DNA from: an uncultured Verrucomicrobiae bacterium
Lineage (GTDB): Bacteria > Verrucomicrobiota > Verrucomicrobiia > Limisphaerales > Palsa-1400
NCBI GenBank assembly: GCA_963702845.1
Contig: OY969763.1
Location: forward strand, 2,784,001 to 2,848,000
Length of the DNA: 64,000 bases
Direction of reading: 5' to 3'
Shown here: in pieces, positions 30,001-33,000 of the stretch
Layout: each line of letters starts with the position of its first letter
Position numbering within the stretch: position 1 is the first letter of the stretch
Position numbers: made by a program

Positions 30001-33000
30001 ACCTCTTTCGTGTTTTTTCGATTTTCCATAAAAGTTAGAGCCTCCTTACGTCGGCTGCTACATTAGTATAACGACGGACGAAACGGCGTGATCGTCCCTA
30101 CCTGGAAGACATATGCTGGACGGTGTTTTCATGGATCGAGATTACTTGCGATTACCTGTGATTACTTCTGATTACCTTTTTTCATATTTTTCACGTCAAA
30201 AACCACGGAGCCTGACTTGGTGGACCTTCTGTGGTTGGGTTGCGATCATGTAACGGAGTGCGTCGGCGGCATCGTCGCCGCCGACACCGGTTTCGTCGGG
30301 ATCGGTTTTCAGGACGTCTTCCGGTCGGTTAGGGTCGCTTTGCAACGTAGGGAGGCAATCGATCAGACGCGAGCAGCGGCGATGGAAAAAGAGTGTTGGT
30401 TTGAGCTTTCCTTCTTCATCGCCGAGACGTTTGAGGATGGCAGCCCAGCCGTTCAGGCGCTCCATATTGGCCTGGCGCATAGAAATTCCCAGTTGCCGGT
30501 ATTGCGATGCAATCGTTGTGCCGTCGCTTTGTTTGCCGAAGATATCAGCGCCTGCGACGAACCTTGCGAGGTTAATCGAATAGCGTTCGTTGAGTCCCAA
30601 GTGATGCCGTTTGAGCATGGCTTTGATCGCCTCTGCGTGACGTTCCGGAATCCAATTACGCGCGGCGTGCTCGTCGACGATGAAGATGTTGTTGTCACTG
30701 TCGCGGCAACCGAGCAGGACGACGGTATAGTGGGTGAAGCCGTAATCAAGCGCAGCGAACCATTCGACGGCGCGGCGGTCGTCGAACTCGTCGATGACGT
30801 GCAATTCCCGGCGGAAGTTGGTGAAGAATTGGCCGGCCTTGATGTCCCAGTCGCCATCCAGCCACGCGCGCCGTTGCCAACCGGTGAGAGAGCCAAGAGC
30901 ATCTTTATATCCGGCGTTGACGAAAGAATTGTCGTTAACGGTCGCTGGGATGAAGCGTGTCTGCTTCTCCTCGCCGCGTTGAAATGGAACGACGTATTTA
31001 GACCGATACCATGCGTGGCCGACACCTCCGGGATTGGTGGTGGAATAGATGCGAGGTCGCCAGCCGGTTTTTGAGGTGCGGTTGCAGGTGCAGATGTCCA
31101 GGAATTTGCGGCTGGTCAGGGTGGTGGCTTCTTCAATGCCTATGACGTCGTATTCGAGCCCTAGATATTTATCGATGTCGTTTTCGTTTTGAAAATGACC
31201 GATGATGATACGTGAGCCGTTTTCGAACGTGAGAACGCCTCGAGTGGTGCTGAACTCGTGGTTGAGCCTGAGGAGAAGACGGCGGCGCAGGTCTTCGAAG
31301 TTTTCGAGGTTGGATTTGCCGACTTTGCGCAGGAGCAAACATTTGAGGCCGGGGAAGCGTTGGCAGTCATCGGTGCCCATCTGAGCGATGAGCCAATGAG
31401 ATTTGCCACCGCCACGCGCACCGCCGAAGCCGATGGAGGTTGGGCCGGTTGCAAGATCGCAAAGGCGCGCGGCGGCACTGGCGGCGAGTTGTTTGGGCTG
31501 AAGTATCACGCCGGCGTTGATGAAGTGCCTTAGCTGATCCGGTGGGCAACCTGCTTCAGTGGCTAAGTTGATGTAGTGTTCGGGAGACATTTGGAAAGAA
31601 AAGTGCCAAGTGATGAGTGATGAGTTTTACTGCATCTAATTTTGGAAATGGGTGCCGTTTGAATTAGCCGTCGCGAGTGGTGGTGGAGGTGGTGGGCAGA
31701 TTTTATTGAGGGCGGCGAGGAGTTCGTTCTGTATGGGTGATAGTGCAGGGCGATCGTCGTCAGTCGTTGGGCTTTGCAGGGCCGAACGGGACATTTTGGA
31801 ACCGATACTCAGGGCGCGCGACAGTTCGGAGATGCGGAATTTTTCGAGGTCGCGATCACCGAAATTTTCGAGGCAACATCGCACCACGTTGAGGAGTTTT
31901 TGTGCGTCTTCCCATTCCTGCTCGCGGTATTCAGCGGTGCGTTTGGCCCAATCAGCAGCAGCTTTCCGAGCCGCTTCTGTTTCAGCCTGCGCTTCCTGTT
32001 CGAGTAAGCCGGAATTGAAACGGTTTATGCGCTCGCTCCAGTCGTATTTGCTGGACCAGTTTTTGACCGTGGGCAATTGCTCGCCGTGTTTGTCGGCGAC
32101 GGCTTGCAGAGTACGGCGGTGGCCGAGGCGAAAGTAGGTCGTGAAAGCGTTGAAGGCACGTGGGGTTTCGCCGGGGGAACGGGAAAAGGTTGGTTGACAA
32201 CCGACATGTGTGTCGGGGCTCGCTCCGCTCGGCGTTGAGGGTTGAGGGGCATCTTGTCCATTTCGGATTTCCACCTTCGCCGAGGCTACGGCGGACGGGT
32301 CGGATTGCGGATTGCGAATTGAATCGGGACCAGTTTCTAACATCGATGGCGTATTTGCTGTGTCGGGTGTCGCACAAACTGTTGTTGAGACCGTGTTGGA
32401 ATCATTGGAGGTATTCATATTTTTGAAAAACCCTACCAAAGTCACTTGGACAAAGACGGTCCAAGTGAAAATTTTTTGAACAAAAAAGAAGAATTGGCGC
32501 AAACGTCTTAAACGCAGGCGGTAATGCACTGAATACGAGTTAAAACATCAACCAAGCGATCGAATTCTTTGACCGTAACCGCCGCGTCCGCTGGTGACGA
32601 CTCACTAGCGTGGCCGGTATGGCGCAGCTTTACGTTTCCAAGGTGAAATACTTCTTGGCGGCAGGTTACCGGGAAGGAAACCGCAAGGGTGTGTTGCAGA
32701 AATTCCCGGAAAATCCCACAAAGAATGTGTAAATGTGTAGGACTGACACTGGACATAGGGATAATATGATTGTATGCGATGAAGACCTCCCACTCCAACG
32801 AGACCACAGCACACACTGGGACGGTGTTTGCTATCTCGGAGATTGTCCTCGGTTTGGCCATGCTGCGTGGCATTGCCCCTTTGGTGGATTTCGCATTTCC
32901 CCAGGCGACATCCAAGAGTCCAACGGAGGTTGATGAGACTAAAGCGCAAGATCAACAATAGGGTATCCCAAATGGGCGAGATCAACATTTGGACTAACCA

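Follow-up and report, generated by a model that had tools for sequence, protein, structure and literature searches.

The locus lies in a 64,000-nt stretch of DNA (the window; contig OY969763.1, positions 2,784,001 to 2,848,000, assembly GCA_963702845.1) from the genome of an uncultured Verrucomicrobiae bacterium. The initial annotation placed an orphan operon of small (TerS) and large (TerL) terminase subunit genes between sucA and a DUF1501 gene, and this was confirmed by an ORF scan combined with Pfam and PHROGs searches (Table 1). TerS is directly upstream of TerL, and the two genes are separated by 45 nt. As called, the TerS ORF has a GTG start at 32529 and reads through a 25-bp palindrome (31636-32529), which agrees with the earlier remark that the palindrome lies inside the called gene. 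The true start is likely the ATG at 32418, 24 nt past the palindrome; the gene of a congener starts at the same place.

Table 1. Positions of genes and sequence features around the TerS-TerL pair, numbered along the window.
Feature	Position	Strand	Remarks
DUF1501 gene	28478-29935		flank of the pair
Second GTAATC x4 array	29967-30003	-	173 nt downstream of the first array; 94.2% identical in congener
First GTAATC x4 array	30140-30176	-	10-nt spacing; 20 nt past TerL stop; 92.6% identical in congener
TerL gene	30196-31590	-	464 aa, intact; Pfam and PHROGs matches; ATPase and nuclease motifs intact
Degenerate box-like inverted repeat	31588-31612 (genome 2815588)	-	in TerS-TerL spacer, overlaps TerL ATG; listed only at two mismatches per arm
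TerS-like gene	31636-32418	-	260 aa counted from ATG 32418; phrog_6299; variable low-complexity N-terminus, then conserved core
Extended -10, TGgTAGGGT	32430-32438	-	hexamer begins 7 nt past box
Palindrome (box), CACTTGGAC-CGTCTTT-GTCCAAGTG	32443-32467	-	25 bp; one of 27 genome sites
AT-rich stretch, UP-element-like	32468-32482	-	directly upstream of box
TerL 3'-end fragment, element type (GGDDAADALRYLVATKSRVILQRKL)	33002-33076	-	88% aa identity to TerL ends of elements C and D
Cassette: promoter-like repeat D3 (33164-33223) driving 68-aa ORF (33224-33430)	33164-33430	+	
Second, shorter TerL 3'-end fragment	33453-33516	-	resembles TerL 3' ends and similar genome fragments in tblastx
sucA	33622-36507		flank of the pair

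TerL was assigned using the Pfam models Terminase_3 (30.5 bits, cut-off 23.2) and Terminase_6N (30.3 bits, cut-off 22), and it matched phrog_2 over residues 55-453 (E 5.7e-29). The protein contains GGARGGGKSH (56-65), YDVIGIEEA (147-155), TTNPGG, D282, D306/E307, GGDDAADALRY and the residues D439/D440/D443. The conserved residues are taken to form the Walker A motif, the Walker B motif and the acidic center of an RNase H-like nuclease. The residues of the ATPase and nuclease motifs were invariant in 12 family members and in five stand-alone copies. Solved structures were searched by sequence with the single protein and with a 12-row profile, neither of which gave a match, and NCBIfam produced no match for TerS or TerL.

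TerS matched phrog_6299, a terminase small subunit family, over its conserved core (E 9.9e-21), and no Pfam family was matched. The AlphaFold2 model (pLDDT 83, pTM 0.53) has three short helices followed by a helix of 59 residues. Foldseek returned no match to the model at E <= 0.001, only generic similarities to HTH proteins and helical hairpins, and VIA-align likewise found generic helical hairpins only (best Z 8.1). Internal repeats of TerS were considered as a pac site and rejected, being just short two-copy matches, and no other candidate for such a site was identified.

Apart from TerS and TerL, phage Pfam domains were found in 0/23 ORFs scanned at window positions 13738-47651 (~16 kb either way), and the same scan identified no portal or capsid gene beside TerL. 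No integrase, replication gene or att-like repeat was found at the locus, no tRNA was predicted at 15000-48000 by a tRNA scan, and 28000-37000 had no Rfam match at E <= 0.1. No defence gene adjoins the pair, and neither TerS nor TerL matched a model of the PADLOC library (2023). The initial annotation had reported no other recognisable phage gene beside the pair. This holds for Pfam domains, but the 1.1-kb gap between sucA and the box contains both TerL 3'-end fragments and an element cassette. The longer fragment is 60% identical (amino acids) to the window's own TerL. The 68-aa product of the cassette has a hydrophobic stretch and belongs to no Pfam family; blastn finds the cassette repeat about 30 times in the genome, in many cases within resident elements. 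A unit of repeat D3, repeat D6 and a TerL 3' end is also found after TerL in element D. Two of the resident elements, B and E, were scanned and carry primase/helicase, TerS, TerL, portal, scaffold and capsid-like genes; a full tail set was seen in neither. Judged from sequence similarity, a capsid-bearing element has left debris in the gap between sucA and the box.

The palindrome was examined across the genome. Allowing one mismatch per arm, 27 copies were found, with 9-nt arms that are alike at all sites, and a reversed control pattern gave no match in 41/41 genomes searched. The sequence TAnnnT occurs at +8 to +13, exactly 7 nt past the box, at 24/27 sites, and the TG of an extended -10 occurs at +5 and +6, again at 24/27. 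The 15 nt upstream of the boxes average 83% A+T, and the first ATG follows 19-39 nt past the box on the same strand. Counted 17 nt back from the -10, the -35 position lands on the spacer (AGCCTT); these are promoters without a -35 hexamer. The consensus is thus a compact promoter: an AT-rich stretch, the two arms separated by N7 over the -35 position, and TGnTAnnnT 7 nt on. In the window the start codon of TerS is just 11 nt past the -10, and the leader of its mRNA is therefore very short. A search for RNA runs covering window 29900-33700 found none, and one DNA run contained 0.05 of the sampled words. With its A/T run the palindrome also passes a simple scan for intrinsic terminators on the plus strand. 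That identity was rejected because the arms are constant at 27 sites, an ATG follows within 19-39 nt and the -10 lies at a fixed distance. The palindrome could conceivably act as a 5'-UTR hairpin, though the -10 lies downstream of it.

Boxes precede terminase operons at genome positions 2185273, 2301890, 2761114, 2816443 (the window), 6005173 and 5844313, in agreement with the earlier count of six orphan operons that start from the palindrome. The palindrome had been described as a module shared among these operons. The sharing is real, but the module is better read as a promoter with an operator at -35, of the DriD/PafBC kind, and it also precedes four genes for WYL regulators. Three of these four boxes are perfect and one is degenerate, and each lies directly upstream of its gene. 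Pfam WYL and WCX domains were found in 3/3 WYL proteins scanned. One regulator gene is a core paralogue (genome 3081007-3081996), and the other three are element-borne. The nearest solved relatives of the WYL protein tested were PafBC (E 4e-14), DriD (entry 8tp8, E 9e-10) and CapW. PADLOC assigned the WYL proteins to WYL and Cas3c-type models. The core and element paralogues all share the recognition-helix residues K46, R50, D51, M55, R56 and D57. By analogy with these relatives, the palindrome is a candidate binding site for a WYL regulator over the -35 position, and the position of the site alone points to activation rather than repression.

DriD of Caulobacter and PafBC of mycobacteria are WYL-domain activators whose DNA-damage regulons do not depend on LexA. 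The DriD site, ATACGAC-N7-GTCGTAT, lies across the -35 position, and its distance from the -10 is constant (PMC13004042). PafBC likewise replaces recognition of the -35, termed 'sigma adaptation' in PMC11804915. The box resembles the DriD site in having two inverted arms, 7 nt apart, with GAC/GTC at their inner ends (GAC-N7-GTC), and in lying over the -35 of promoters that have no -35 hexamer, at a constant distance from the -10. A wHTH-WYL-WCX regulator is present here, as in both systems, and recA is downstream of a box. The half-site differs from that of DriD, being CACTTGGAC here. The regulon differs too: terminase genes and additional WYL paralogues predominate in it, whereas PMC13004042 mentions no terminase, and, unlike those of DriD and PafBC, it is large in one genus only.

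The link to DNA damage rests partly on the genes downstream of other boxes. No Peptidase_S24 match, the signature of a LexA-type peptidase, was found in the genome, which makes the box regulon a candidate damage response. The palindrome was said to precede recA, ligA and imuAB. Boxes are indeed found upstream of recA, ligA and imuB, but at some distance, 0.3-1.1 kb for damage genes (518 nt for recA, ~650 nt for ligA and ~1.1 kb for imuB). Short 'ORFs' that lie between the box and these three genes are apparently non-coding. Given the long distances, direct control of recA, ligA and imuB by the box is unproven. An orthologue of the core WYL regulator is present in 37/41 genomes; other genera have 0-1 perfect boxes, and none was found before recA in the relatives searched outside this genus. 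The large box regulon is therefore young and confined to the genus. In other genera no WYL gene was seen within 1.5 kb of the boxes.

Terminase_6N identified 15 TerL proteins in the genome, all above the cut-off, which matches the number reported previously; one is interrupted by a TAG codon. 7/15 are of the window's type (55-68% identical). Nine TerS proteins of the phrog_6299 type were counted, likewise as reported for the satellite type. The window pair itself had been assigned to the type carried by satellite-like elements, an assignment that proved too simple. In a tree of 7 orphan-type and 13 element-type TerS rows the split had support of 100/100; the window TerS belongs to the orphan-type clade, shared only with other stand-alone pairs, and the window TerL, which is 65-69% identical to the TerLs of resident elements, falls outside the element clade. 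TerL residues 1-45 are 69% identical to the genome's other orphan versus 51-60% to the elements, and elsewhere in the protein the order is reversed. Recombination was rejected as the source of this pattern: at its length the segment carries little weight, and with the root on the element branch the trees can be explained without recombination.

The pair was also found outside this genome. A bare TerS-TerL pair occurs in at least four further genomes. In three other Verrucomicrobiota assemblies only cellular genes lie within 10 kb of it, bar one integrase fragment, and in other genera it adjoins a conserved XRE-type regulator. Element-type TerS was found in 16/33 viral loci examined, while a scan of viral contigs by two peptide patterns identified no orphan-type TerS. 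On this phylogenetic evidence, stand-alone TerS-TerL modules are an old, separate lineage. Element-type TerL accompanied the orphan pair in 4/4 searchable genomes (five copies in G000, at least one in G002, five in G807 and one in G572), and 39 relatives without the pair had a full-length copy in three cases and a fragment in one, a co-occurrence that concerns few and related genomes.

A congener has box, TerS, TerL and DUF1501 in the same order. The earlier report of this order, with TerL ~91% identical and dN/dS 0.11, was confirmed, with collinearity on the downstream side only: synteny breaks off at the box, and the gene upstream in the congener is not sucA. TerL is 90.7% identical to the congener copy (dN/dS 0.11 at dS 0.51) and TerS is 67% identical (dN/dS 0.24), and both are full length in both species. 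Comparison values of dN/dS were 0.126 for TerL and 0.121 for portal of element E, 0.036 for recA and 0.024 for DUF1501. Between the two species the box differs at 2/7 spacer bases and at no position of either arm. Recent exchange was rejected as a cause of low TerL dS, since 0.51 is within the range of eight other genes (0.375-1.44). Both genes of the pair are intact, and going by these substitution rates purifying selection acts on them with the same strength as on TerL and portal of the complete element E.

A pair that is kept by selection and seemingly induced by damage suggests continued use by the bacterium or by resident phage-like elements. The explanation that we prefer, tentatively and with slightly less than even confidence, is a packaging module of mobile origin that has been retained, is induced by DNA damage as part of a regulon independent of LexA, and uses capsids from resident elements. 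A wHTH-WYL-WCX regulator would bind the palindrome when ssDNA builds up and recruit RNA polymerase, as DriD and PafBC do; the candidates are the core paralogue and/or the three element-borne WYL proteins. The product would be a near-leaderless TerS-TerL mRNA. TerS would then mark DNA, and TerL would cut it and pump it into procapsids. There is no capsid gene at the locus, and procapsids must therefore come in trans, presumably from resident capsid-bearing elements of the same TerL family. The outcome could be packaging of chromosomal DNA from the locus, by GTA-like transfer or lateral transduction, or else the pair could compete with the packaging carried out by the elements themselves.

The same observations may be extended, more doubtfully, to stand-alone TerS-TerL modules in general. 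With their own regulators these might form a distinct class of Verrucomicrobiota elements that provide fixed chromosomal packaging origins for the capsids of co-resident capsid-forming satellites, so that DNA damage would set off a directed export of segments of the chromosome. The regulator of this putative class would be a damage-sensing WYL activator acting through the box in this genus and an XRE-type protein in other genera, and the whole would amount to a distributed GTA-like or lateral-transduction-like system built from satellite parts.

Alternatively, the pair could be stranded from a phage-like element and not yet decayed, with an ancestral promoter and no present function, which we consider unlikely. 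Element-type TerL debris and a cassette lie just upstream, the pair has a GC skew (+0.15 to +0.23) unlike that of the flanks, distribution is patchy, and the genome has further TerL copies that are fragmentary or interrupted. The box at genome 2301890, in the cluster of Mu-type head genes, is the natural promoter of a gp27-TerL-portal operon, and box-TerS-TerL could therefore be a truncated operon. A cryptic prophage remnant likewise has isolated phage genes among cellular ones, with fragments of phage genes alongside. However, no relaxed selection, truncation or frameshift was found in TerS or TerL. The low dN/dS of TerL has been maintained over a dS of 0.51 with all catalytic motifs kept in two species, constraint equals that in a complete element, the position is kept in the second species, the box has conserved arms and a drifting spacer, and the bare pair recurs as an old lineage.

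Interference or defence is a rather less probable function. Here the host terminase would compete for procapsids or cut foreign DNA when phage or satellite replication generates ssDNA or damage, and so lower the yield of phages or resident elements. Some defence systems are controlled by ssDNA-sensing regulators of this WYL family (CapW; PMC11662680), and the WYL protein tested has CapW as one of its solved relatives. The pair is found together with capsid-bearing elements of its TerL family, and the XRE-type regulator next to it in other genera gives it the look of a small regulated island. Yet no further defence gene adjoins the pair, and from sequence evidence the mechanism of such interference is not distinguishable from packaging in trans.

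The pair might also be a minimal satellite that is packaged, together with a nearby packaging site, in capsids of resident elements or a helper phage and spreads by recombination, although the probability appears small. Its distribution is patchy, the upstream neighbours differ in the two congeners, and orphan pairs stand beside differing cellular genes across genomes. Two GTAATC x4 arrays bracket ~135 nt just past TerL and are better conserved in the congener than the neighbouring genes, which are 85-88% identical. Against this, integrase, replication gene, att-like repeats and tRNA are missing from the locus, orphan-type TerS was missing from the viral contigs scanned, and the arrays are members of a distinct repeat family with ~12 genome loci and no link to terminases.

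bapE encodes a nuclease. The least probable alternative, a repair or processing enzyme in which TerL serves damaged chromosomes as an ATP-driven nuclease or translocase with TerS as DNA-binding partner and no capsid, draws on the box shared with recA, ligA and imuB in the candidate damage regulon of a genome in which no LexA-type peptidase was found, and on the Caulobacter DriD regulon, which includes bapE and other damage-response promoters (PMC13004042), but the residues kept match capsid-associated TerLs up to the C-terminal end, the TerS-like genes behind 8/27 boxes come from two unrelated families, which is more like element biology, and most relatives lack the TerS-TerL family.

The retained packaging module was compared with known systems. 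A capsid-forming satellite has integrase, replication module, TerS, TerL, portal, capsid and connectors in one island. Elements B and E carry most of this set, whereas the window locus has just TerS and TerL, with no integrase, replication, portal or capsid gene, and its TerS is in another clade than that of the elements. Lateral transduction is packaging from a fixed chromosomal site, and alphaproteobacterial GTAs have a reduced TerS. With GTAs and lateral transduction the locus shares chromosomal packaging genes that are under selection, putatively stress-induced and apart from head genes, a likeness that here extends to the genes only. Unlike a GTA, the pair is neither widely nor vertically conserved: orphan-type TerS was found in 2/400 other genomes sampled in the order and 0/400 in the phylum. 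The window TerS is, furthermore, a sequence-conserved, putative HTH protein. So rare and patchy a TerS is more in keeping with a mobile element than with a host function. Satellites of cf-PICI type are treated in PMC10085698 and 10.1101/2025.02.11.637232.

If the retained packaging module is correct, bare terminase pairs under selection would mean that packaging enzymes can be maintained in the chromosome in the absence of their capsids. A terminase is normally taken to indicate a virus or what is left of one. The finding would bear on the origin of GTAs and lateral transduction, and on how satellites exploit one another. It also provides a testable picture of the damage response in a Verrucomicrobiota genome where no LexA-type peptidase was found, namely a WYL regulon that resembles those of DriD and PafBC, has a sharply defined promoter, and in which phage-derived operons make up a large share in one genus (8/27 boxes lie before TerS-like genes).

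A literature search identified no description of stand-alone, orphan or domesticated terminases, and a search on Planctomycetes, terminase and prophage gave nothing relevant by title. The terms terminase, WYL, DNA damage and regulon do occur together in one paper, which appears to deal with phages of Limnohabitans.

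The 464-aa TerL exceeds the Pfam cut-offs for Terminase_3 and Terminase_6N, and its residues 55-453 match PHROG large-terminase families (E 5.7e-29). The sole match of the TerS protein is phrog_6299, terminase small subunit (E 9.9e-21). No phage domains were found in a Pfam scan of 23 ORFs at window 13738-47651. These ORFs are of cellular types: Ig-repeat protein, pilin-like protein, ROK, PPC, WD40, PSCyt/PSD/DUF1501, CinA, Fur and ATP synthase. A tRNA scan found no tRNA around the pair, and no Rfam family matched there. Since the scanned neighbors are cellular and lack phage domains, and tRNAs and Rfam families are absent, the pair was classified as an orphan, as the initial annotation had proposed. 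GC skew across the pair (+0.15 to +0.23) is distinct from that of the flanks.

Features at the terminase pair (window coordinates)
Feature	Position	Strand	Remark
sucA	33622-36507	-	upstream flank of pair
Stretch between sucA and TerS ORF			1.1 kb, without long ORF
TerL 3'-end fragment, element-type	33453-33516		between sucA and box
Promoter-like repeat	33164-33223		roughly 30 blastn matches in genome
TerL 3'-end fragment, element-type	33002-33076		between sucA and box
68-aa ORF		opposite	hydrophobic stretch; between sucA and box
TerS ORF	32529-31636	-	297 aa as called from GTG 32529; phrog_6299
Box	32443-32467	-	palindrome
-10 TAGGGT	32430-32435	-	
TerS start ATG	32418	-	
TerL ORF	31590-30196	-	464 aa; Terminase_3, Terminase_6N, PHROG large-terminase families
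GTAATC array	30140-30176	-	four hexamers; downstream of TerL
GTAATC array	29967-30003	-	four hexamers; downstream of TerL
DUF1501 gene	29935-28478	-	downstream of TerL
PSCyt2/PSD1 gene	28475-26019	-	after DUF1501 gene

The palindromic box, CACTTGGAC-N7-GTCCAAGTG, has 27 copies in the genome at ≤1 mismatch per arm. The reversed control pattern had no copy in any of 41 genomes searched. The box spacer is asymmetric, mostly AGCCTTT, so every site can be oriented. The 15 nt upstream of oriented boxes are 83% A+T, TAnnnT lies exactly 7 nt downstream at 24/27 sites, TG occupies the extended -10 position at 24/27, and the first ATG follows 19-39 nt downstream. Similarity between sites is limited to ~45-75 nt surrounding the box. 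Assuming 17-nt spacing, the -35 position coincides with the box spacer, and a -35 hexamer is absent at the box promoters. The palindrome is thus a predicted promoter with operator. Because of the positions of box, -10 and ATG, the TerS leader is only a few nt long and the GTG call is too long.

Three genes encoding WYL+WCX proteins lie directly downstream of a box, and a degenerate box immediately precedes the genome's fourth WYL gene. One WYL protein was compared with solved structures, and its closest relatives there are PafBC, DriD and CapW. The fourth WYL gene belongs to the core, with orthologues in 37/41 related genomes (55-86% identity). The other three are paralogues (39-41% identity), each 0.2-18 kb away from phage-like element C, D or E, and they keep the recognition-helix residues of the core protein. 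The one adjoining element E (L008, genome 119465-124965) is first in an operon that also contains a PAPS-reductase-like gene plus more large ORFs, directed away from the element; a congener (L098) retains this WYL gene and its box beside the orthologue of element E.

The site of DriD, a WYL-domain activator of Caulobacter, is ATACGAC-N7-GTCGTAT; it overlaps the -35 position of promoters that have no -35 hexamer and lies at a constant distance from the -10 (PMC13004042). PafBC substitutes for -35 recognition in mycobacteria (PMC11804915). The box here is likewise at the -35 position, with an N7 spacer, fixed -10 distance and no -35 hexamer. Peptidase_S24 had no match in the genome, and LexA_DNA_bind matched solely ORFs of 135-168 aa. 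Boxes were found 518 nt upstream of recA, ~650 nt upstream of ligA and upstream of the imuB operon, in agreement with the initial annotation. Because of the boxes before WYL genes and upstream of recA, ligA and imuB, the DriD/PafBC architecture and the lack of Peptidase_S24, we read the box as the putative operator of a damage regulon that depends on WYL and not on LexA, with binding and induction predicted from architecture.

Matches to the ligA adenylation domain (genome 40566-41347, -) fall in two adjacent pieces, each in an open frame of its own (279 and 190 aa); the cause is a frameshift or a misassembly. The window contains one more perfect box (55567-55591, +), which precedes a 78-aa 'ORF' of a leader family shared with the ORF before ligA, then genes at 55940-58351 (803 aa) and 58348-59544 (398 aa). 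Their products had no match in Pfam, PHROGs, NCBIfam or PADLOC; the two genes may belong to the damage regulon as unknown components.

Of 40 relatives searched, just the two congeners have numerous boxes (18 and 4, both assemblies being incomplete). G022, of another genus, has nine within a different repeat without a -10; at L054, L059 and L063 the palindrome arms are carried by this conserved dispersed repeat. Three other genera have one box each, always preceding a homologue of a 68-aa gene that lies at genome position 561158 here; this is the only box site shared with them (L010, L120; L049, L053, L055, L056). The gene encodes an arginine-rich protein, and two genes (87 and 166 aa) come after it. 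By analogy with DidA, a small damage-induced protein, it could be an ancestral target of the WYL regulator. No recA palindrome was found within 900 nt upstream in 28 relatives outside the genus, and the core WYL gene is preceded by a box in this genus only. From these counts, the 561158 sites and the restriction of the recA and core WYL boxes to the genus, box and regulator look old, but the large regulon, terminases included, is an expansion inside this genus. TerS-like genes are driven by 8/27 boxes (5 gp27-like, 3 window-type).

The genome is a single 6.03-Mb contig with 15 Terminase_6N matches above cut-off, the number of large-terminase genes counted initially. Seven are of the window type: the window copy, five within the phage-like elements and one orphan adjoining nuoH. 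The remaining 8/15 are of the type earlier termed Mu-like; 6/8 also match Terminase_6C, and a Phage_Mu_Gp27 match was found upstream of one. The window-type TerS profile matches nine genes. Elements B and E, the ones scanned, have the order primase/helicase, TerS, TerL, ~6 kb of small ORFs, portal, scaffold; in element B, a 346-aa head-region protein comes next (phrog_8571, a family without assigned function). Isolated TerL C-terminus fragments with no TerL body alongside, 64-67% identical to the window TerL, lie at genome 398728-398925, 397789-397917, 1543177-1543363 and 3447099-3447242. A box and a gp27-like gene are followed by a gene (L015 3190-4554, -; genome ~2129671-2131035) whose 455-aa product is grouped by BLAST with Mu-type TerLs. 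This protein, perhaps a chimera, matches aldehyde dehydrogenase in Pfam over residues 173-452, along with an unknown PHROG (E 2.9e-70).

The pair had been assigned to the type that the satellite-like elements carry. Its TerL is 55-68% identical to the other window-type copies, and both trees separate the pair from the elements. The TerS shares 43-52% identity with the other three orphan-type TerS of the genome (the nuoH orphan's and two solitary genes) and 26-31% with those of the five elements. The 20 sequences of the TerS tree fell into two clades (100/100), one of 7 orphan-type and one of 13 element-type rows; in the TerL tree (19 rows), the window pair fell outside the element clade (94/94) and the other orphans formed their own (95/95). 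The nearest public relatives are labelled as Verrucomicrobiota. Three other assemblies have an orphan-type pair; its neighbors there within 10 kb are all cellular except for a single integrase fragment of 155 aa. The cellular genes are PPDK, an ABC1 kinase and polyprenyl synthase in the first assembly, glycosidases plus a sulfatase in the second, and Rho, an oxidoreductase and nuoB to nuoH in the last. An XRE-type regulator is conserved on all three contigs (44-49% identity), adjacent and divergent in 2/3, whereas this genus has the WYL box in its place. Two orphan pairs of one clade adjoin nuo genes in different genomes: L006 (genome 6002575-6007065) precedes nuoH-J-K-L, with a collagen-repeat, tail-fibre-like gene directly upstream of its box, and L161 precedes nuoB to nuoH, after a 117-aa ORF.

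The congener assembly G002 is 67% complete, and its relevant contig (5.2 kb) is collinear with window 28479-32527: DUF1501, both GTAATC arrays, TerL, TerS and palindrome. The order reported initially for a sister species therefore holds from the palindrome to DUF1501, but upstream of the palindrome G002 has a different gene. Its box arms are identical to the window's, and 2/7 spacer bases are changed. Nei-Gojobori dN/dS (dS) between the two genomes was 0.11 (0.51) for TerL, as expected from the purifying selection claimed before, 0.24 (0.95) for TerS, 0.024 (0.98) for DUF1501, 0.036 (0.375) for recA and 0.071 (1.33) for the core WYL gene. With 0.126 (0.62) for the TerL and 0.121 (0.96) for the portal of element E, the orphan TerL is constrained as much as packaging genes of a complete element. 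The window TerL keeps every residue invariant in a 12-member family alignment (GGARGGGKSH, YDVIGIEEA, TTNPGG, D282, D306/E307, GGDDAADALRY), as do five stand-alone copies.

The site thus holds an intact, selected TerS-TerL pair with no capsid genes nearby, under a compact promoter common to WYL and damage genes. We tentatively favor a damage-induced packaging pair: a WYL regulator would activate it upon DNA damage, it would act on DNA as a terminase, and it might borrow capsids from resident elements, either packaging chromosomal DNA from this site or interfering with the elements. Element-type TerL copies are present in 4/4 searchable genomes with an orphan pair; among 39 relatives without one, three have a full-length copy and one a fragment. 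With so few genomes, which are moreover related, this co-occurrence is only a hint. Terminase genes that stand bare in a genome are commonly classed as prophage remains; an inert remnant is unlikely here, beside the conserved residues and low dN/dS. A defence or interference module, with which the co-occurrence would also be compatible, seems rather doubtful. A self-mobilising minimal satellite is improbable. Of 38 TerL loci found in IMG/VR, 33 were examined, with TerS of element type in 16/33, of orphan type in 0/33 and of neither in 17/33, and a portal lies few kb downstream in 14/16 element-type loci. A pattern-based scan found no orphan-type TerS in viral contigs; this type is rare (2/400 other genomes sampled in the order, 0/400 in the phylum). 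Element-type homologues of other genera are located behind a primase. A repair enzyme, suggested by the company of recA and ligA, is very improbable for a protein with intact terminase motifs.

Among the papers searched, none used orphan, stand-alone, domesticated or solitary as a term for terminases, and none tied terminases to WYL regulons. The components belong to kinds already known; what is new is that they are combined, that the bare pair recurs and that it sits in a WYL regulon.

In element D a unit of TerL 3' end, promoter-like repeat and small ORF likewise stands directly after TerL, and a duplicate of 93 nt from the TerL end occurs 604 nt farther downstream. Since the fragments and repeat/ORF unit between sucA and the box match it, this site took up element DNA that later decayed. 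The promoter-like repeat, also at L003 10438-10489, contains a GCGAACAA/TTGTTCGC inverted repeat and precedes small ORFs on the strand opposite TerL, as arrays within phage-like elements. Its placement in element D, between the TerL stop and the duplicate 3' end, suggests cassettes that use the end of TerL for insertion or recombination.

The two GTAATC arrays (hexamers at 10-nt spacing) enclose ~135 nt and are conserved in the congener above the coding flanks. The repeat family to which they belong has ~12 genome loci and no tie to terminases. Elsewhere they lie inside a ~250-nt repeat rich in other short iterated words, which at several loci comes after a conserved three-gene module, reaches at least nine tandem units at one, and resembles the origin or partition site of a small element.
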